This document shows positions 1,617-59,076 of a stretch of DNA of 64,000 bases, piece after piece. This DNA comes from an uncultured bacterium (GTDB lineage Bacteria; CAIWAD01), in NCBI GenBank assembly GCA_903910645.1, contig CAIWAD010000113.1, positions 45,564 through 109,563 of the forward strand, given 5' to 3'. Positions within the stretch are counted from its first letter, which is position 1, and every line of letters begins with the position of its first letter. The position numbers and the translations under genes are program-made. A model generated the notes under the pieces. That model was not told where the DNA came from and did no database searches. It saw nothing but the letters and a program-made list of their open reading frames with translations.

Positions 1617-1662
1617 GGTGCCAGGACGGTGCCAGGAGCGCTCCTGGCACCGTCCTGGCACC
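1617..1662. repeat. Perfect 46-bp palindrome (23-bp arms) containing two CCTGGCACC motifs per arm; REP-like extragenic palindrome between convergent genes
   Basis: GGTGCCAGGACGGTGCCAGGAGC|GCTCCTGGCACCGTCCTGGCACC read directly. The same 23-nt module recurs at 4513-4535. Confidence 0.6.
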
Positions 1663-4410: not shown

Positions 4411-4512
4411 ATGCGTTGCCCCAATGTGAACGAGCTGCGGCATGAACAAGAAGAATGCCGATGGTACCTGGGCAGTGTCTCCCTGCAATGCGGGCTGGGC
4501 ATTGTGATCTGA
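4411..4512 (+). CDS. Small ORF (33 aa) with three Cys and a strong RBS
   Basis: AAAGGAGG sits 7 nt upstream of the ATG. Peptide MRCPNVNELRHEQEECRWYLGSVSLQCGLGIVI ends right before the REP-like motif and a terminator. Confidence 0.25.
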   Translation: MRCPNVNELRHEQEECRWYLGSVSLQCGLGIVI

Positions 4513-4535
4513 CCTGGCACCAACCTGGCACCGGA
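4513..4535. repeat. Second copy of the CCTGGCACC-NN-CCTGGCACCGGA module (REP-like)
   Basis: CCTGGCACCAACCTGGCACCGGA, near-identical to 1643-1665. It lies in a convergent intergenic region adjacent to a terminator hairpin. Confidence 0.5.
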
Positions 4536-21819: not shown

Positions 21820-22044
21820 TTCACCCATAGGCAAAACAGCTCTCGTCTCGAGTCTCGAACTCCATCTCAGCGCAGCGCTTCTCCTGCCCTGCACCCTGTC
21901 CTTCCAGCGAAAGCTGGGATCTGGAGTCAGCCTGGATTCCCGTTTTCGCGGGAATGACAGGTCCGTGTTCCGCTACTATGTGCAGCAACGCTCCTGCACC
22001 GAGCCGAACATCAAAACCCTGCCGGGCCGATCCTGCCACCAAGA

Positions 22045-22094: not shown

Positions 22095-23333
22095 TCAGTT
22101 GGTGATCCGGCAAGTACGGAAGCCAAAGTCCGACATCTGATTTGTTTGGCCATTTGGAGCACGCCACACACTGGGCAACCAGGTATTGTCGCGCTGCCAA
22201 CTGCCATTCTTGGCTACGCGGCTGGTGCTCACCGTGGTGGGCCCAACGGGGTTGGTGCGTGGCTGGTTTGGCAGGGAACTTGCGTAGTAGTCGTTGGTGA
22301 ATTCCCCCACATTTCCGCCCATGTCCTGCAGGCCCTGAGCCGTGTTGCCAAACGGATGGCTACCCACAGCGCTGGTCCAACCCACGCAATAGCCTCCGCG
22401 GTTGTAGTTGGCTTCCGTGCATGTGGGCGAGCTGTTACCCCATGGATAGGTGGTGTCACCATTCATGCAAGCCGCATATTCCCATTCCGCTTCCGTTGGC
22501 AAGCGATAGCCAGTGGCCAAATAGGGGTTGTTGACAGACGGATCCATGGCCCAGTTGCCATTGTAAAAGGGAACCAAGCCTTCCATCATGCTGCGCCAAT
22601 CGCAATAGCACGCGGCACCATACCAGCTTACCATCTTGGCCGGATGGACATTGGCGTCGTAGCCACCAGGATAGGCGAAGCCTGGACCAAATGTACCACC
22701 ATTGTAGGTTGAACTCTGCACATAGAATAGCCCTGTGGTGGAGTTGTATCTGATTTCCAGATAATTTATTCCAGATACATAGACCAGTTTGACACCGTAA
22801 GCATACACATTGCTAGTTCCATAAACCGCATCATAGACAACAGTAATCAGGCCTTCAGCTTTTGCCCAGTTCAGGGCTTCCACATACTCGGCATTGGTTA
22901 CTTCGTGTTGACCCAAACAATAGTTGTGCGTTAAAGTGACTTGATTCATAACACCATTGCCCATGTAGAAGGAACCGGCTTGCAGGCCCACCATGCCCAC
23001 GGGTGTGGTTGAATACTCCAGATTCACGCGGAACATGGCGCTGTCCACGCTGATGGGCGAGCTTGTGCCCATGGCGTACACCACGCTGTGCGCGCCCGCG
23101 GCAACACTTCCCACATCGCCGCTCAGCTGCGCCGTGGGGACACTGGTCCAGTTGGTGCCGCCGTCCAGGCTGCGCTCCACCGTCACCGTGCCCGCCGTGT
23201 CCGTGCTGTAGCTGATATCCACCAGGCCCGTGCCATCCGTGCGCTGGGCGAAGCTGACACCCGACACTGTTGCGGCAAGGGCGCTGCCAGCCACCAGGGC
23301 GCCCATCAGGCTGGTCATCAAAGTCTTGTTCAT
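22095..23333 (-). CDS. Secreted protein with a C-terminal FGE-sulfatase (SUMF1/formylglycine-generating-enzyme family) domain
   Basis: Signal peptide MNKTLMTSLMGALVAGSALAA. C-terminal motifs RLPTEAEWEYAA, GNVGEF, KNGSW typical of the FGE-sulfatase fold. AAGGAG RBS. Confidence 0.8.
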   Translation of the reverse strand: MNKTLMTSLMGALVAGSALAATVSGVSFAQRTDGTGLVDISYSTDTAGTVTVERSLDGGTNWTSVPTAQLSGDVGSVAAGAHSVVYAMGTSSPISVDSAMFRVNLEYSTTPVGMVGLQAGSFYMGNGVMNQVTLTHNYCLGQHEVTNAEYVEALNWAKAEGLITVVYDAVYGTSNVYAYGVKLVYVSGINYLEIRYNSTTGLFYVQSSTYNGGTFGPGFAYPGGYDANVHPAKMVSWYGAACYCDWRSMMEGLVPFYNGNWAMDPSVNNPYLATGYRLPTEAEWEYAACMNGDTTYPWGNSSPTCTEANYNRGGYCVGWTSAVGSHPFGNTAQGLQDMGGNVGEFTNDYYASSLPNQPRTNPVGPTTVSTSRVAKNGSWQRDNTWLPSVWRAPNGQTNQMSDFGFRTCRITN

Positions 23334-23344
23334 CAGGATGCTCC

Positions 23345-24313
23345 TTACTTGCTCAACATGAGCTTCTGCGCCTGCTGGCGCCCCGCCGCCTCCAGCACCG
23401 CGATGTACACGCCGCTGGACCACTGGCTGCCATCCACCTGCACCTCGTGGGTGCCGGCTTCCACCAAACCCGTCACCAGGGTGGCCTGCAAGGCGCCCTT
23501 CAGGTCGTAGACCTTCAGGCTGGCCTCGCCCAGCTCATCCATGCTGTAGCGCAGCGTGCAGGAGGGGTTGAAGGGATTCGGGTAGGGATTGGACAGGGCG
23601 AAGGTGGTGGCCAGCTCGCCAGCGTCCACCATGTCGTTCACCTGGCAGATCACCGTGCCGTGGGAGCTGACGATGGAGCACTGGGTCTGGCCGCTGTGAT
23701 CGCCTTCAAAGGTCACCGTCACCGTGACGCTCTCGCCCTGGGCCAGTTCATAGCTCGCGGGGCTGACGCTGAAGGTGCCGCACTCTTCGCTGATGGTGCC
23801 GGCAAGGCTCGTGGGGCAGGTGCCGGTGGAGGTGTTGTGGATGGTGAAGCTGCGCGTCACGGGCCCCATCAGGTTCACCGTGCCGAAGTCCAGCAGCTCC
23901 GCATCCAGGGCCGTGCTTTCCACACAGGCGGGAGGCAGCACAACGACGGGTCCAAGCACGGTGGCGGCGTTGCCGTAGGCATCCAGGGCCGCCACGCGCA
24001 AGGTGTAAAGACCGGTCTCCCCTTCCGTCCAGCTCACCGCGTCCGAGAAAGCGAAGGCCGTGCCCAACACAATCTCATCCACGCTATCGTCCAGCGCCCA
24101 CACGGCACGCACGGCGCCGGGATGTGCATCCGCCGCCACCCAAGAGGCGGACAACAGGGCCGGGGTGTGTCCCAGGGTGGGGAAATCCACGCTGGTGAAT
24201 GTGGGCGGGGTTGTGTCCAGGACGCCCAGGGCACTGGTGCCGGACACCACTGCGGCGAACACCGCGGGGCCTACAGCCAGGCCTGCGCACAGAGCAAGCA
24301 GTCGACGCTTCAT
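23345..24313 (-). CDS. Secreted protein with a T9SS (Por) C-terminal sorting domain
   Basis: Signal peptide, and a C-terminal ~80 aa ending ...SNPYPNPFNPSCTLRYSM...KVYDLKGALQATL...GVYIAVLEA... typical of the T9SS CTD. It sits just upstream of the FGE-family gene in the same orientation. Confidence 0.7.
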   Translation of the reverse strand: MKRRLLALCAGLAVGPAVFAAVVSGTSALGVLDTTPPTFTSVDFPTLGHTPALLSASWVAADAHPGAVRAVWALDDSVDEIVLGTAFAFSDAVSWTEGETGLYTLRVAALDAYGNAATVLGPVVVLPPACVESTALDAELLDFGTVNLMGPVTRSFTIHNTSTGTCPTSLAGTISEECGTFSVSPASYELAQGESVTVTVTFEGDHSGQTQCSIVSSHGTVICQVNDMVDAGELATTFALSNPYPNPFNPSCTLRYSMDELGEASLKVYDLKGALQATLVTGLVEAGTHEVQVDGSQWSSGVYIAVLEAAGRQQAQKLMLSK

Positions 24314-24460
24314 GCCGATTCTCCTTCAAACGATGTTGTGCTTCACGGCCAAGGGCACCCGGCCGTTGGGGGGTCAACAGAGGCCTGGCCGATGACGACA
24401 CTCATCGTCACTTCACAAGTTCAGATTGAGGGGTTCTCGGCTTCAGGGCGCGAAAAGGAG

Positions 24461-24477
24461 TTGCAAGAGTTGTGCCA
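24461..24477 (-). promoter_or_regulatory. Sigma54 (-24/-12) promoter, exact consensus, oriented toward the T9SS-cargo/FGE operon
   Basis: Minus-strand reading TGGCAC-AACTC-TTGCA. It lies ~150 nt upstream of the ATG at 24313. Confidence 0.5.
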
Positions 24478-24757
24478 TTCCTGGCATGGCCACATCAACC
24501 GTTGTGCATCAACAGCTTTCTCTCGAAGTTCTATTCACTTTTAGTTCAAATTCAATGTGCTGATGTTCGTTTTCCGGCACACCTGTCGGATTTGAAACAC
24601 TTTGGGTGGCCGCACTCCATGGTGTCGGCAGCTTTCCCGTCCCAAGCCCTGTCATCCCAGTGAAAGCAGGGATCTCCATTTCAAGCTGTCCTCTTGTTAT
24701 GACAATACAATGGCTTGGGCCGCTGATTGTCAGTGGAGCAGCTTTGAGCTGATGACA

Positions 24758-25060
24758 CACCGCACCGGCACCACACCGGCACCGCACCGGCACCACACCG
24801 GCACCACACCGGCACCACACCGGCACCGCACCGGCACCACACCGGCACCACACCGGCACCGCACCGGCACCGCACCGGCACCACACCGGCACCGCACCGG
24901 CACCGCACCGGCACCGCACCGGCACCACACCGGCACCGCACCGGCACCACACTGGCACCACACCGGCACCGCACCGGCACCACACCGGCACCGCACCGGC
25001 ACCACACTGGCACCACACCGGCACCGCACCGGCACCACACCGGCACCACACCGGCACCAC
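24758..25060. repeat. Tandem repeat of a 12-bp unit CACCGGCACC(A/G)C, ~25 copies (two CACTGGCACCAC variants)
   Basis: Read directly from the sequence. It lies in the divergent intergenic region between the 24313(-) and 25147(+) genes. The ORFs spanning it on both strands are periodic artefacts. Confidence 0.85.
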
Positions 25061-25146
25061 GCTTCCATGAGAGGTCCTTTGTGGGAGGGAGTATCCATCC
25101 GCTGCAGGCTTGGTATCTTGCAACCTGTCAAGCCGGAGATTCCCCC

Positions 25147-25689
25147 ATGTTTGAAAGCTACACCGCTTGGGTTCGCGAGCTTCCTTTCACCAGTGCCTTT
25201 GTTCAATTCGCGGTGTTGGGAACCCTGGGCGAGCTGCTGCCCTGGTGGTTGAAGCATCGCCGCACCCTGCCCTGCACACGCACGCAGTTCATGGGAAAAG
25301 TACTGGGATGGGGGCTGTTGGGCCTGCTCATCAAGCTGGGCTTCCTGATGATGAAGGGCGCCACCACAGCGACCATTGACCATGGTCTCCTGCCGGAGAG
25401 CTTCCGCCAGGGTTTGGGCTGGGCATTCTCCGTAAGCGTGCTCACCAATCTGTTCTTTGGGCCGCAAATGATGTTCGGCCATCGTCTATGGGACAATGTG
25501 ATCCTGCGTCAGCGCAATTGGATTGGCCTGGAAAAGGCATGGTGGACCCTCATCTGGTTCTGGATCCCCGCCCACACCCTCACCTTTTCCCTGCCACCGG
25601 ACTATCAGATTGGTCTGGCCGCCTTGTGGAGCATTGTGCTGGGCGTCATCCTGGGATTCACCACGCGCAAGGGCAAGGCCGCAGCCTGA
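25147..25689 (+). CDS. Hypothetical integral membrane protein
   Basis: About 180 aa with 4-5 hydrophobic segments. The family is not recognised. Confidence 0.45.
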   Translation: MFESYTAWVRELPFTSAFVQFAVLGTLGELLPWWLKHRRTLPCTRTQFMGKVLGWGLLGLLIKLGFLMMKGATTATIDHGLLPESFRQGLGWAFSVSVLTNLFFGPQMMFGHRLWDNVILRQRNWIGLEKAWWTLIWFWIPAHTLTFSLPPDYQIGLAALWSIVLGVILGFTTRKGKAAA

Positions 25690-52023: not shown

Positions 52024-53312
52024 GATGCGGACCCCAGCATGCTGCGGATGCGCTCACCCAGCTCGCTAAGCCGGAAGGGCTTGGCCAGGAAGCTGACATT
52101 GCGGTACTTGGATGAGTTCAAGACCTCGGCGGCGGAGCTGTAGCCCGTCATCATGAGCATGGGCAGTTCCGGCACGCGGTTCTTCACCTCAAGCAAAAGC
52201 TTGAACCCATTCATGCGCGGCATGTAGACATCGCTGAGGATAAGGGCCGGACGGCGGGCCTTGAACAAGCTCATGGCCTCCACGCCATCCTCCGCCTGAT
52301 GGACTTCGTAGCCCTGCAATAGCAGGTAGTGGGCCGTGAGTTCGCGGATGTTCTGCTCGTCCTCCACCAGCAGCAGGACGGGCACCACATTGTCCTGGCT
52401 TACCCGGGCGCGGATCTGGCTGGCCAGTTCCGCCGGGCCGGAGGCCGTGGCGGCCAACAACGCGCTGATGTCCCTGGACAGGCGGCGCATGCCGCGATCC
52501 CCTTCGTCGGGGATTTGGATGATGCGCAGGCAAGGGTTGGAACGGCGCATCTGCGTTAGCAGGCTGGCATGCCGCTCGGCGCACACGCTGTCCACAATCA
52601 GGAAGTCCACTTCGTCGCTTTCCGCCAGGGTGCCGTTCTCACCCACGCGAAGCGGGCTGGCGCCCACATCCACCAGGGCCTCAAGCAGATCGCTCTGCTG
52701 GTCGGCCAGGCTTAGCAGCACGCGGATGCGGCTGTTCACCACGGGAAGCGCGGAGTCACCATCCGGAACGGGCAGAGTGGGCAAGCCCGCAGGCGGCGCG
52801 CTCTCACGCGGGGCCTTGGCCGGTTCCGGGGCGCGGGGCGTGGCGGCGGGCGTCCCCAGGGTGGAATTGAGCCCCTGGGAGCCTGCGGGCAATTCCGCCT
52901 GCTGGCGGAACTCCAAGGCACGCTGTTGCAAAGCGTGGAGGCGTTCCAGGTAGAAGCTGTCCGGTGTGTTGCGCGGCAGGTACTCGGCCAATTGGATCAG
53001 CGCCAGCTGCTCGCGCTCTTCGCGCAGCGCCACCCGGTCCGCGGGATCGGCCGAACCAATCACAATCACGCCGCCGGCGGCCATGCGCGGGAAAATCTCC
53101 CGGATCATGGTCATGGCCACCGTCACATCCCGGCGCTCCTCGCGCAGATCGAAAATGACCACATCCGGCAAGGCCGTGCGGTAGGCGGACAGGGCACCGC
53201 GTCCCACGGGAAAGAACTGCACGCGGCCCAGGCGCTCATCCCGGACGCTCTCGTCCAGGTGCTCGGCCCAGGTGGCGTCGCTGCTGATCAGATAGACGAT
53301 GGTGGACTTCAC
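52020..53312 (-). CDS. Multi-REC response regulator (two degenerate REC-like domains + canonical C-terminal REC), paralogous to the downstream regulator
   Basis: C-terminal REC shares the DVYMPRMNGFKLL motif with 51343-52023. GTG start overlapping the stop of the sigma54 activator. Confidence 0.7.
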   Translation of the reverse strand: MKSTIVYLISSDATWAEHLDESVRDERLGRVQFFPVGRGALSAYRTALPDVVIFDLREERRDVTVAMTMIREIFPRMAAGGVIVIGSADPADRVALREEREQLALIQLAEYLPRNTPDSFYLERLHALQQRALEFRQQAELPAGSQGLNSTLGTPAATPRAPEPAKAPRESAPPAGLPTLPVPDGDSALPVVNSRIRVLLSLADQQSDLLEALVDVGASPLRVGENGTLAESDEVDFLIVDSVCAERHASLLTQMRRSNPCLRIIQIPDEGDRGMRRLSRDISALLAATASGPAELASQIRARVSQDNVVPVLLLVEDEQNIRELTAHYLLLQGYEVHQAEDGVEAMSLFKARRPALILSDVYMPRMNGFKLLLEVKNRVPELPMLMMTGYSSAAEVLNSSKYRNVSFLAKPFRLSELGERIRSMLGSAS

Positions 53313-54832
53313 AAATGGCCTGAATGCTTGCTCTGTGCGTTGTGCGCGTGACTCTCCTTTGCCCTATCGGCAGGCGGGACGGGCAACTTGCGTGCCGACG
53401 GATCGGAACCGTGCCCTTTCGCCGGACTTTTCCGGCGGAACTGCGAAGGCTCAAGACCCAGGCGCTTCAGCTTGGCTTGCAGGTTCTTGCGCGCGATGCC
53501 CAGGCGCCGGGAACAGGCGGAGACATTGCCGTCCTCCTCTTCCAGCACGCGGGCCAGCAAGTCCTGCTCAAAGCGCTCCCGGGCCTCTTCAAGGGTAAGA
53601 CCTGCCAGATCGGCACCCCAAGGCGGATGCGGGGCCTCGGCGCCGGTGCGGCGATACTCCGGCGGCAACTGCGCCAGGCCCAAACTGTCGCCAACATGCA
53701 GGAGGCAGCGCTCTAGCAGGTTTTCCAGTTCACGAATGTTGCCCGGCCAATCCAGGTTGGCCAGGTGCTCCAGCAGCTCATCATCCACGCGGGGCAGCTC
53801 CCGCCGCAAGCGTTGGCAGTGACGGGCCAGGATGAAGTCCACCAGCTCCGGCAGGTCCTCGCGCCGTTCGCGCAAGGGAGGCAAATGCAGTTCCAGCACA
53901 TTCAGCCGGTAGTAGAGATCCTGGCGGAACTCGCCATCCGCCATGGCTTTGGACAGGTTGCGATTGGTGGCGCTGATGAGGCGGATGTTCACCTTGCGGG
54001 TGCGCGAACTCCCCACCGGCTCGAATTCCCGTTCCTGCAGCACGCGCAGCAGTTTGGCCTGCAGTTCGGGCCGCAGTTCGCCAATCTCGTCCAGGAACAG
54101 CGTGCCGCCCTCGGCTTCCGCCACGCGGCCCTTGCGATCCCTGTCCGCGCCGGTGAAGGCTCCGCGCACATGGCCGAAAAGTTCACTCTCCAACAGGGTG
54201 GCGGGAATGGCCGCCGCACTGACGCGTATGAATGGACCGACGCGGCGAGGGGAGAAATGGTGGATCAGGCTGGCCATCAATTCCTTGCCCGTACCGGATT
54301 CCCCAGTCACCAGCACGCTGGCATCGCTGTCCGCAATGCGGTTGATGGTAAGCTGCAAGAGGTTGTTCATGCGACGGTTGCGGCTGGCGGGAAGGCCCTG
54401 CTGCAGGCGTCGCAGCATTTCCGTCATCAGTTGACCGCCCCGGGAGGACAAGTGCAGATCCTGGGCAAGGACCTGGATGTCCGCCAACAAGCGGGGAAAG
54501 TCCACTGGTTTGGTGATGTAGCCCAGGGCGCCCTTGCGCATGGCGGCCACGGCATCGGGAATACTGCCATAGCCGGTGAACAGCATGACGCGTGTGCCCG
54601 GATGCTGGGCAAGCACCGCATCCAACAATTGCAGCCCGTCCATGCGCGGCATGCGGATATCAGACAGCACCAGCTGGGCGGGGGCCTCTTCCAACAGCTG
54701 CAGGGCTTCCCGGCCATCCATGGCTTGGCGCACGCGGTGTCCGGCCTCGACAAGAAGCTCGGAAACCACTTCGCGGACAACGCGCTCGTCGTCCACCACC
54801 AGAATGCTCAGCGGCGTATCAGTGCTGTCCAT
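53309..54832 (-). CDS. Sigma54-dependent transcriptional activator (REC + AAA+ sigma54-interaction + Fis-type HTH), NtrC family
   Basis: GESGTGKE Walker A, GAFTGA motif, and a C-terminal HTH. Confidence 0.9.
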   Translation of the reverse strand: MDSTDTPLSILVVDDERVVREVVSELLVEAGHRVRQAMDGREALQLLEEAPAQLVLSDIRMPRMDGLQLLDAVLAQHPGTRVMLFTGYGSIPDAVAAMRKGALGYITKPVDFPRLLADIQVLAQDLHLSSRGGQLMTEMLRRLQQGLPASRNRRMNNLLQLTINRIADSDASVLVTGESGTGKELMASLIHHFSPRRVGPFIRVSAAAIPATLLESELFGHVRGAFTGADRDRKGRVAEAEGGTLFLDEIGELRPELQAKLLRVLQEREFEPVGSSRTRKVNIRLISATNRNLSKAMADGEFRQDLYYRLNVLELHLPPLRERREDLPELVDFILARHCQRLRRELPRVDDELLEHLANLDWPGNIRELENLLERCLLHVGDSLGLAQLPPEYRRTGAEAPHPPWGADLAGLTLEEARERFEQDLLARVLEEEDGNVSACSRRLGIARKNLQAKLKRLGLEPSQFRRKSPAKGHGSDPSARKLPVPPADRAKESHAHNAQSKHSGHL

Positions 54833-58791: not shown

Positions 58792-59076
58792 ATGCTGGCC
58801 AAGACCACCCACTTTGGCTCAATTCCACCAATCCCGCCATGGGAAGTGCTTGACTCCAAAGCTGATTCCATTGGCACAGCACTTGCAATATGCAGGTCTG
58901 AGAAGGGCGGCCGTGTGGGGACGGCCCTGGCTGGCGGATCCGACCGGAGATGTTCCGTGGGGACGGTGAAGGCGTCCTGGTCCCGGTCCGCAGCTTTCCT
59001 TCCGGGAAAGTGGCCACGACAAAGCAGAAGGGCGGCGGCGATTGTAGGCAGAGTTCGCCCCCGACCGTTGAAGGAG

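Follow-up and report, generated by a model that had tools for sequence, protein, structure and literature searches.

The 11-bp tandem array at positions 24758-25060 of the window, i.e. the whole 64-kb stretch of DNA analysed here, is the longest copy seen in this study of an 11-bp repeat family. We consider it probable that the array belongs to a lineage-specific family and represents the cognate flanking repeat of a HUH/Y1 transposase of the RAYT type that is encoded elsewhere in the genome. The family consists of head-to-tail 11-bp units with the core C(C/T)GGCAC, which are scattered in the extragenic DNA of an uncultivated, T9SS-bearing, 64%-GC bacterium and its relatives. REP/RAYT is the best-studied system in which a domesticated transposase maintains a population of short repeats in bacterial genomes, and the family described here looks like a RAYT-associated, tandem-repeat variant of it, that is, mobile-repeat DNA rather than a sigma-54 enhancer.

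Structure and locus of the array

The array sits in an 833-bp gap between a gene with a T9SS tail on the minus strand and a gene for a 180-aa protein on the plus strand. The original prediction had placed it in the divergent region between a T9SS-cargo/FGE operon (minus) and a plus-strand gene, and the open reading frames and Pfam matches agree with this placement. The features of the locus are as follows:

22095..23333, minus strand: FGE-sulfatase gene, with a product like formylglycine-generating enzyme, a downstream member of this minus-strand operon (Pfam FGE-sulfatase, 1e-32)
23345..24313, minus strand: encodes a secreted protein that combines an Ig-like domain with a C-terminal T9SS sorting domain (Pfam Por_Secre_tail, 8e-09; HYDIN_VesB_CFA65-like_Ig, 9e-09)
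24462..24477, minus strand: predicted sigma-54-type promoter TGGCACAACTCTTGCA, facing the T9SS-cargo/FGE operon (exact match to TGGCAC-N5-TTGCW)
24651..24674, plus strand: another dispersed short hairpin element, GTCATCCCAGCGAAAGCTGGGATC-like
24758..25060, plus strand: 11-bp tandem array (TRF, unit list and R pattern, composition)
25111..25119, plus strand: extended -10-like motif TGGTATCTT (by-eye alignment with L129 5884-6000 and L124 3421-3481)
25147..25689, plus strand: gene for a conserved 180-aa protein (ORF; no Pfam match)

The FGE-sulfatase gene has been called as 412 aa in other assemblies. The 180-aa protein, which is read from its sequence as a putative membrane protein, has 772 homologues, including those of MAGs labelled Krumholzibacteriia, Zixibacteria and LCP-89, and the ATG of its gene lies 87 nt from the array end. 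The genes ispE, prs, an L25 gene and pth are located next door, and the array is therefore taken to be chromosomal. The GTCATCCCAGCGAAAGCTGGGATC-like element precedes the array by 84 nt and has a second copy at 21898-21921; these two matches in the window, with 2 mismatches each, compare with 0 expected, and the element also flanks the array in L139.

Near-perfect head-to-tail repetition was detected at 24758-25060 by TRF (period 11, 27.5 copies, score 508, 92% matches). Twenty-seven complete units occupy 24763-25059, the unit being 11 bp long with the sequence CACCGGCACC(A/G), i.e. CACCGGCACCR, and none of 100 shuffles showed a motif count as high as that of the array. The composition is extreme (GC 0.73-0.78, AT skew about +1), with a plus strand that is C-rich and nearly free of T. 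The array itself and its two variant units had been described correctly, CACTGGCACCA units being found at 24950 and 25005; the reported size of about 25 copies of a 12-bp unit is revised here to 27 full units of 11 bp, since the 12-bp period resulted from a double count of the C that begins each following unit.

The array is crossed in all six frames by open reading frames of 122-250 aa, with a periodicity of 33 nt or 11 residues, and these frames would favour a coding sequence for a protein with 11-residue repeats. We give this reading virtually no credence. The 11-bp unit lacks stop codons in all six frames, so that the frames persist through the array and their openness follows simply from the missing stop triplets. 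The period of 11 nt is no multiple of 3, the family members contain 2 to 27 units in counts that are not multiples of 3, and a crude GC3-based gene screen called nothing within the array proper; its one overlapping call covers the last 26 nt of the array and is an upstream-extended form of the 180-aa gene. The earlier view of the frames on both strands as periodic artefacts stands, although the reason given for it (12 nt keeps frame) does not.

An exact sigma-54 promoter had been proposed to face the minus-strand operon, and TGGCACAACTCTTGCA was found at 24462-24477, with the start codon at 24313 located 149 nt downstream. In L129, a relative with 75% identity, TGGCATGAGAGTTGCC occupies the equivalent position upstream of the orthologous T9SS gene, and the window encodes an activator with a Sigma54_activat domain. 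Judging from the conserved match, the predicted minus-strand promoter is real. The sigma-54 element proposed on the plus strand (25106-25122) did not hold up: its spacing is GG-N11-GC, and the -24/-12 pair is not kept in relatives, with L129 and L124 retaining only TGGTAKCTT. The motif TGGTATCTT is likely to be the core promoter of the 180-aa gene, relatives having TGGTAGCTT at an equal distance to the ATG. A sigma-70 consensus scan of 24200-25300 returned no promoter, and a terminator scan of the same interval returned one terminator-like site inside the 180-aa gene, which is within chance expectation. No Rfam match was obtained at gathering thresholds in the whole window, and no inverted repeats were found in 24314-24770. 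Derivation of the intergenic region by decay of a 326-aa gene, the occupant of this position in the 75% relative, was rejected after tblastn gave no significant match in the window as a whole and none within this region. As read from the sequence, the genuine regulatory elements are the predicted sigma-54 promoter at 24462-24477 and the short conserved, putative promoter region before the 180-aa gene.

Strain variation and dispersal of the repeat

The array is present in strains that are approximately 98-100% identical (L002, L003, L004, L130 and L138) and lacking at this locus in relatives whose proteins are 86% and 75% identical. The comparison of copy number among strains that the original prediction had suggested revealed differences in length and in the internal A/G pattern: the window has 27 units and L003 has 18; L138 has 16 or more, with its A/G variants ordered differently. 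Compared with L003, the window contains internal duplications of 4 and 5 units (44 and 55 bp), which are too short for the difference to be an assembly collapse at k=141. Many short-read contigs end inside the array. This copy of the repeat is young, unstable and strain-variable in length; the suggestion of a microsatellite prone to slippage fits the variation of unit number and A/G order and the frequent breaks of assemblies within the array. L001 was considered as an array-less allele with another left flank and rejected; the tetranucleotide profile of this flank fits the window poorly (r 0.81, compared with 0.93-0.96 for chunks of the same genome), and the L001 contig may therefore be chimeric.

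The polymorphic unit number, together with an array that stops some 55 bp short of the putative transcription start, raises the question of a copy-number-dependent modulator, which would act on the 180-aa gene through the distance or topology between upstream elements and promoter. The 7-bp repeats of hmw1/2 in H. influenzae and the TAAA repeats of nadA in N. meningitidis are comparable tandem arrays just before a promoter with strain-variable copy number, whereas the array type described here is mostly found at 3' ends elsewhere and has a unit of about one helical turn. An hmw-like role appears improbable, for the conserved promoter-proximal sequence lies wholly downstream of the array, an intergenic region of 61 bp serves the gene in the 86% relative, and the family members are mostly located away from promoters.

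The same repeat occurs at other loci. A metagenome scan for three exact units returned 14 stretches, one of which is the window locus in another strain (L138, 97.8% identical). Arrays of CACCGGCACCA with 6-12 units were found in other contexts in L132, L134, L136, L139, L141, L142 and L143; L132 and L143 abut one array, leaving at least six other loci. Each of these six lies near the 3' end of a gene or in the gap between two convergent genes (L143 once the adjoining RAYT-like ORF is recognised), and the genes that end before such arrays include OTCase, DTW, SfsA and DUF1295. One array, in L136, mixes CCTGGCACC and CCGGCACC units. In tetranucleotide usage, L132, L141, L142 and L143 correlate with the window at 0.90-0.95, the 86% relative at 0.94 and the best of 43 unrelated controls at 0.84; the assignment of the dispersed loci to one genome rests on this composition and on co-occurrence in the same metagenomes. 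Within the 64-kb window, the family has three sites, the array and two smaller ones:

1617..1662, no strand assigned: perfect 46-bp palindrome in which two CCTGGCACCGT-type units are opposed by two units in inverted orientation, REPIN-like (CCTGGCACC-type doublets)
4512..4532, plus strand: direct doublet ACCTGGCACCA ACCTGGCACC, CCTGGCACC-type, closely flanked by a TGA triplet before it and a terminator-like hairpin after it, in the gap between two convergent genes

The palindrome lies between the stop codons of a histidine-kinase gene and of glnA, and its DNA hairpin has a predicted energy of -29.4 kcal/mol (z = -10.9). The unit of the 4512-4532 doublet also builds the arrays behind the RAYT-like genes of L145, L155 and L156. 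Neither these two small sites nor the link to a RAYT-like transposase figured in the original prediction.

A scan of viral contigs for three exact units returned nothing. In the species-genome scan, the pattern of GGCACC-N5 four times was too general, matching at least 118 loci in many phyla, and CACCGGCACCR occurred in none of the matches listed. Short 11-bp arrays of the GGCACC type are common in many phyla with no RAYT nearby, and some lie within genes. We claim no general RAYT link for the GGCACC arrays of other phyla; among the matches listed, only L100 (Thermoanaerobaculia) has a distant Y1 gene, approximately 310 bp from a small array. In L076 (Planctomycetota), a RAYT-like gene is flanked by ordinary REP hairpins; this case and the frequent arrays with no RAYT nearby count against the RAYT reading.

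A plain variable-number tandem repeat, arising from a chance 11-bp duplication within a long intergenic stretch free of constraint, followed by slippage or unequal recombination, with neither function nor enzyme, would account for the very pure units, for strain changes by whole units that include blocks of 4 and 5, for the relatives at 86% and 75% that have no array and for the frequency of short 11-bp arrays across many phyla. That the length changes are explicable by plain slippage alone counts against the RAYT reading. Independent origin, however, cannot explain an identical 11-mer at six or more other loci, and it leaves unexplained the two related doublets in the window and the arrays directly behind a RAYT-like gene in all seven lineages with DNA. 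We regard this explanation as unlikely; slippage probably contributes to length change without accounting for dispersal.

RAYT-like genes adjoining the arrays

The array of L143 begins 4 nt past the stop codon of a 212-aa ORF that resembles HUH/Y1 transposases and has matches to Pfam Y1_Tnp and to NF047646, the NCBIfam model for REP-associated tyrosine transposases. That model is also the top family of all 15 aligned homologues, at 49.8 bits against a curated cut-off of 80, and this position below the NCBIfam RAYT cut-off counts against the RAYT reading. The residues H60 and H62 (HxH) and Y120 (the Tyr of YIxxNP) are invariant in 15/15 homologues. The AlphaFold model of the protein (pLDDT 86) was best matched by Foldseek to 4ER8, E. 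coli TnpA_REP with a REP hairpin (E 2e-8), compared with about 1e-4 for the TnpA proteins of IS608 and ISDra2; a sequence search of the PDB returned only ISDra2 TnpA and the D. radiodurans Y1 transposase 2FYX.

An array with an 11-bp period follows the stop codon at 0-16 nt in each of the seven gene lineages with DNA (41-100% identity), and the sequence of the unit behind the gene varies by lineage:

L143: CACCGGCACCA
L145, L155 and L156: CCTGGCACCNN
L149-152: CCGGCACGTCA and CCGGCACCACA
L146-148: GGTGCTCYTGA, 17 copies
L153/154: repeats on both sides of the RAYT-like gene

The gene order Peptidase_M1 - RAYT - array - OTCase is found across the abutting L143 and L132, in L145 and in L149, and the L155 contig shows Peptidase_M1 - RAYT before it ends, at 59-63% identity. 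Fixed synteny is typical of RAYTs and not of insertion sequences. Three types of RAYT-like paralogues co-occur in the same metagenomes. No RAYT-like gene was detected within the 64-kb window by tblastn and the family HMM, and we therefore infer from relatives and metagenome contigs that the genome of the window encodes one.

These contexts bear on the earlier reading of the array as an enhancer or UAS, in which the units would be sites for an NtrC-type activator or a binding or decoy array for holoenzyme, thereby tuning the adjacent promoter and the plus-strand gene. The resemblance to the -24 box that had been pointed out is real, in that the unit contains GGCAC and the core CTGGCAC equals the box; the 11-bp spacing recreates GG-N10-GC, and two adjoining CCTGGCACC units form TGGCAC-N5-TGGCA, with one mismatch to the consensus. 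An NtrC-type sigma-54 activator gene is present in the window at 53309-54832, and the array lies upstream of the exact sigma-54 promoter (24462-24477) at a distance of 281-580 bp. Eleven base pairs add about one helical turn, and helical phase would be roughly preserved when units are gained or lost. Nevertheless, the arrays also lie past the stop codons of unrelated genes (OTCase, DTW, SfsA and DUF1295), mostly at gene 3' ends and in non-promoter contexts, and the array is not co-conserved, the 75% relative L129 having the promoter without it. Activator sites are normally dyads located 80-150 bp upstream, whereas the units here are direct repeats that start 281 bp off, with no inverted repeats in 24314-24770. 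The GGTGCTCYTGA arrays of one RAYT lineage break the GG-N10-GC geometry, and the supposed plus-strand promoter is mis-spaced and unconserved. A sigma-54 regulatory array is thus very unlikely.

Comparison with known systems and implications

The closest parallel is provided by the REP/REPIN-RAYT systems ('REPtrons'), such as E. coli TnpA_REP with REP/BIME and the REPINs of Pseudomonas. Shared features are an HUH/Y1 transposase-like gene in fixed synteny, a short repeat that flanks this gene and is also dispersed extragenically with a preference for gene 3' ends, and a repeat sequence that shifts with the transposase lineage. The inverted pair at 1617-1662 forms a long, REPIN-like hairpin, and the best structural match of the RAYT-like protein is 4ER8. 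The known repeats are hairpins of 20-40 bp in alternating orientation, whereas the units described here are non-palindromic, 11 bp long and arranged head to tail in 2 to at least 27 copies. No GTAG or CGTC tag was seen in the repeats here, six of the seven lineages have their array on the 3' side of the gene alone, and the protein falls under the curated RAYT threshold.

The direct arrays have a hairpin potential no better than that of shuffles (z -1.5, -2.2 and +0.6), which counts against the RAYT reading. To our knowledge, the described REP/RAYT cases all use hairpin-forming palindromes, and every characterised RAYT and IS200/IS605 enzyme recognises hairpins. The STRR of cyanobacteria, tandemly repeated heptamers at many extragenic loci of one genome, resemble the present family in having a short tandem unit at many extragenic loci, with a period of 7 bp rather than 11 bp; we know of no transposase associated with them. 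The parC site of plasmid R1 consists of ten 11-bp iterons bound by ParR, arranged head to tail at about one per helical turn; the array here has the same head-to-tail 11-bp design, but is chromosomal and present at many loci, with neither parM nor parR seen near it. Tandem arrays were not described in the parts of the RAYT literature examined, including those of PMC3116915. Searches of the literature on RAYTs combined with direct or tandem repeats, on tandem repeats of 11 bp and on the sequences of the units turned up no such arrays; coverage of the literature was incomplete, so that this is weak evidence of novelty.

If the array is the cognate repeat of a RAYT-type transposase, the enzyme would act on single-stranded DNA as TnpA_REP and IS608 TnpA do, thereby seeding copies at new sites, and the enzyme, ordinary replication slippage or both would gain and lose whole units. 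The array would have landed or expanded at about -55 to -355 from the likely promoter of the 180-aa gene, and an effect on either promoter, if any, would arise incidentally through spacing, topology or occupancy and would not be the reason for the array. A bolder proposal, which we hold to be rather unlikely, is that a new RAYT clade amplifies non-palindromic 11-nt direct repeats with one cleavage and rejoining site per unit, the enzyme expanding, contracting and dispersing the arrays. Dispersed copies could then also bind sigma-54 holoenzyme, as CCTGGCACC units spaced 11 bp apart mimic the -24/-12 geometry with one mismatch; if true, such binding would connect a family of mobile repeats with the sigma-54 regulon.

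Neither a gene nor a sigma-54 enhancer should be annotated at the position of the array. A RAYT-like clade with an 11-bp head-to-tail cognate repeat would widen the substrate range of HUH/Y1 enzymes and provide a way for bacterial 'satellite' DNA to be made enzymatically, and RAYT-linked arrays would explain a class of metagenome contig breaks in this uncultivated lineage.

Structure and genomic context of the array

Tandem Repeats Finder (TRF) detected a single strong tandem array (period 11, 27.5 copies, 92% matches, score 508) in the 833 bp that separate a pair of divergent genes.

Features of the array region (window positions)
23345-24313, minus strand: T9SS-tail protein gene, with an FGE-sulfatase gene downstream
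24462-24477, minus strand: sigma-54 promoter TGGCACAACTCTTGCA, an exact consensus match
24758-25060: the period-11 array
25147-25689, plus strand: conserved gene for a 180-aa protein, without a Pfam family

The motif count was 49 versus 6.5 ± 2.4 in shuffled sequences, far over chance. The original prediction was partly confirmed: the array is real, and its period and copy number had been given wrongly. The period is 11 and not 12 bp, the first C of the next unit having been counted twice, and cutting in 11-nt steps from 24763 yielded 27 complete units of CACCGGCACC(A/G) and not about 25. The two variant units that had been reported are CACTGGCACCA, at 24950 and 25005 (2 of the 27 units). The A/G order along the array is AGAAAGAAGGAGGGAGAaGAGAaGAAA (lower case, CACTGG variants). 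The plus strand is rich in C and nearly lacks T, and all six reading frames are open because the unit contains no stop triplet. Long ORFs through the array are therefore artefacts, as proposed, although the reason offered, that 12 nt keeps frame, does not apply. With a period of 11, which is not a multiple of 3, the array cannot be an ordinary coding repeat.

The 180-aa product reads as a putative membrane protein, and its gene is followed by pth, the L25 gene, prs and ispE, so the array DNA is chromosomal. The exact minus-strand sigma-54 promoter is credible because a relative with 75% identity in the 180-aa protein (L129) carries TGGCATGAGAGTTGCC upstream of the orthologous T9SS gene. The weaker plus-strand sigma-54 site was not upheld, its spacing being GG-N11-GC, without conservation. 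Approximately 28 nt before the ATG of the 180-aa gene, TGGTA(T/G)CTT is common to the window, L129 and another relative (L124) and looks like an extended -10 element; on this reading, the array lies upstream of the core promoter of this gene. The array is at least 281 bp from the promoter at 24462-24477, and the interval between them yielded no dyad repeats of the sort expected for activator sites. Rfam matched nothing in the window. A second exact sigma-54 consensus (TGGCACAGCACTTGCA, 58872-58887, plus strand) was observed past the end of a plus-strand gene, facing a minus-strand NYN-domain gene.

Strain variation and dispersed copies

Contigs encoding identical flanking proteins often stop in the array (L002, L004) or contain a gap within it (L002), and a contig with a 98% identical 180-aa protein (L130) starts inside it. 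Comparison among strains, as had been suggested, revealed copy-number heterogeneity: 27 units in the window, 18 in a contig that spans the array and is 99.5-99.8% identical to the window (L003), and at least 16, in a different A/G order, in a contig that is 97.8% identical (L138). The window carries two blocks that L003 lacks, one of 4 and one of 5 units; these blocks (44 and 55 bp) are too short for collapse by a k=141 assembler, so the difference is probably real. In an 86% relative, the UbiA gene is directly followed by the 180-aa gene, without the array or the FGE/T9SS pair. The 75% relative also lacks the array and has in its position a 326-aa gene, for which tblastn gave no significant match in the window, the array region included. 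Given this variation among close strains and the absence from both relatives, the array is young and length-variable at this locus. One contig (L001, 1-7523; ena:ERZ27313396:k141_205411) is 99.98% identical to the window right of the array, lacks the array and has unrelated DNA with CBS and PFOR genes on the left; GGCACCA meets CGCTTCC at the junction. The tetranucleotide correlation of this left part with the window is 0.81, compared with 0.93-0.96 for same-genome chunks; the contig may be chimeric, or DNA may have been rearranged or acquired where the array ends, and it was not used as evidence.

Two further window sites with CCTGGCACC units at 11-bp spacing were located by TRF and pattern search.

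Further sites in the window
1617-1662: perfect 46-bp palindrome GGTGCCAGGACGGTGCCAGGAG CG CTCCTGGCACCGTCCTGGCACC, two units facing two inverted units, flanked by the stops of the histidine-kinase and glnA genes, which converge on it, and closely followed by a terminator-like hairpin
4512-4532: direct doublet of CCTGGCACC units in a convergent intergenic region, with a TGA triplet just ahead of it and a terminator-like hairpin just behind

Each arm of the palindrome is one mismatch from the sigma-54 consensus, and the inverted pair forms a hairpin (-29.4 kcal/mol, z -10.9). Searching metagenomes for three exact CACCGGCACCR units yielded 14 stretches, including L138. Arrays of 6-12 units of the same 11-mer were found in other gene contexts in L132, L134, L136, L139, L141, L142 and L143, which were counted as six other loci (L138 excluded) since L132 and L143 adjoin one array. 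Each of the six lies close to the 3' end of a gene or in a convergent intergenic region, L143 being counted via the RAYT-like ORF adjoining its array; genes for OTCase, DTW, SfsA, DUF1295 and T9SS cargo are among the neighbours. Tetranucleotide correlations with the window were 0.90-0.95 for L132, L141, L142 and L143; the 86% relative gave 0.94, and none of 43 unrelated controls exceeded 0.84. Several array-bearing contigs come from metagenomes containing the 86% relative. The mixture of CCTGGCACC and CCGGCACC units within one array of L136 ties the window doublets and the long array to one family. The window array is likely to belong to a dispersed 11-bp repeat family, and its description as a slippage-prone microsatellite was half right.

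Another dispersed element, a short GTCATCCCAGCGAAAGCTGGGATC-like hairpin, was observed at 21898-21921 and 24651-24674 of the window, the latter 84 nt left of the array, and at 1002-1084 of L139, where copies also flank the array.

A RAYT-like gene associated with the arrays

The array of L143 starts 4 nt past the stop codon of a 212-aa ORF; joining L143 and L132 via the shared array gives the order Peptidase_M1, ORF, array and, facing them, OTCase. The ORF has a weak Pfam Y1_Tnp match and scores 49.8 bits, under the cut-off of 80, with NCBIfam NF047646 (REP-associated tyrosine transposase, RAYT), which is the best family for all 15 aligned homologues; the HxH motif and the Tyr of YIxxNP are kept among these (n = 15). 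The top match of its AlphaFold model (pLDDT 86) is 4ER8, E. coli TnpA_REP with a REP hairpin (E 2e-8), and IS608 and ISDra2 TnpA are near 1e-4. By these several measures, the ORF is a predicted RAYT-like HUH/Y1 transposase. No RAYT-like gene was found in the 64-kb window. The DNA around homologues at 41-70% identity was examined, and in all seven lineages with DNA a period-11 array begins 0-16 nt past the stop.

Period-11 arrays of RAYT-like genes (contigs; identity to the L143 ORF; unit; extent)
L143; 100%; CACCGGCACCA; contig ends within array
L145; 61%; CCTGGCACCAA; 8 copies
L155; 59%; CCTGGCACCAA; contig ends within array
L156; 67%; CCTGGCACCNN; 6 copies
L149-152; 63%; CCGGCACGTCA / CCGGCACCACA; about 10 copies
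L146-148; 60%; GGTGCTCYTGA; 17-20 copies
L153/154; 41%; NNCCTGGCAC(C/G); 4 upstream and 6 downstream

Peptidase_M1 lies upstream and OTCase downstream of the gene in L143+L132, L145 and L149; in L155 only the Peptidase_M1 side is visible, up to the contig end. With such constant neighbours, the gene behaves as a vertically inherited RAYT would, unlike an insertion sequence.

An enhancer role of the array with sigma-54 had been proposed, and the unit does resemble the -24 box: TGGCAC-N5-TGGCA arises from two CCTGGCACC units. However, this likeness is not family-wide, being absent from the GGTGCTCYTGA arrays, and most family copies sit in non-promoter contexts; the regulatory interpretation is largely unsupported, and the array may incidentally affect the promoters on either side.

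In L146-L148 (Ga0172373, Ga0172367), a RAYT paralogue sits after ApbE, unlike the Peptidase_M1/OTCase context. Three RAYT types with three unit types occur together in the same metagenomes, possibly in one genome. Perfect DnaA-box sequences were observed in L156 (TTATCCACC, ~1720-1730), in a conserved non-coding stretch just 3' of the array behind the RAYT-like gene, and in the matching array flank of L136 (TTATCCACA, ~150-160), a contig that starts in the array, with no RAYT gene visible.

Relation to REP/RAYT systems and other phyla

Four features resemble REP/RAYT systems: a short repeat flanks a conserved gene of Y1 transposase-like type, the sequence of this repeat changes along with the gene lineage, copies of it are scattered extragenically, chiefly at gene 3' ends, and one inverted hairpin-forming pair is present (1617-1662). 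In contrast to REP, the unit measures only 11 bp, lacks palindromic symmetry and runs head to tail in up to 27 units, and the folding of the direct arrays does not surpass that of shuffled sequence. Given these substantial differences, we regard the array as a variation on REP/RAYT systems that falls outside the REP family in the strict sense. An HUH enzyme cutting and rejoining at one site per unit would produce gains and losses of whole units, as would replication slippage, and we regard the chances that the RAYT-like enzyme drives the spread of the family as evenly balanced. In the RAYT/REPIN papers PMC5581495 and 10.1101/279083, a term search gave no passage on flanking repeats of tandem, direct-repeat or array type, the title and abstract of PMC3116915 describe no tandem arrays, and a literature search of incomplete coverage for 11-bp tandem repeats and the unit sequences returned nothing relevant; the novelty of RAYT-linked tandem arrays is probable, not proven. 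The best-supported account, which we consider reasonably likely, is that the array has expanded recently, varies between strains and belongs to a RAYT-associated 11-bp tandem-repeat family.

The Planctomycetota MAG MFD00731.bin.2.201 has at least eight copies of an element (L019, L034, L056, L076, L081-L084) with a mostly conserved head, …CAGGGTGCCACCACCACCCTCGGACACCCCGT, from which L019 and L034 deviate. After the head come TGGCACC-N4 repeats spaced 11 bp apart, their spacers variable, and often a similar tail; the RAYT-like gene of this MAG (L076, 4149-4583) is flanked by ordinary REP hairpins. In a Thermoanaerobaculia MAG (L100), a distant Y1/RAYT-like ORF (1015-2043, HMM E 6e-13) has a TGGCACCCCGA array of 3.5 units (2351-2390) approximately 310 bp downstream, the sole Y1-plus-array case among the 118 broad-scan matches listed. 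In Thermodesulfobacteriota and Muribaculaceae MAGs (L074, minus strand; L120, 925-964; L006, 3753-3803), long ORFs contain 11-bp arrays of GGCACCAAGTC or GGCACCCAGTC, which encode …QVGTKSAPSRHQVGTKS…; similar arrays were observed in Longimicrobiales, Omnitrophota and other MAGs. Within such an ORF, adding or losing a single unit would change the reading frame, thereby making phase variation possible.
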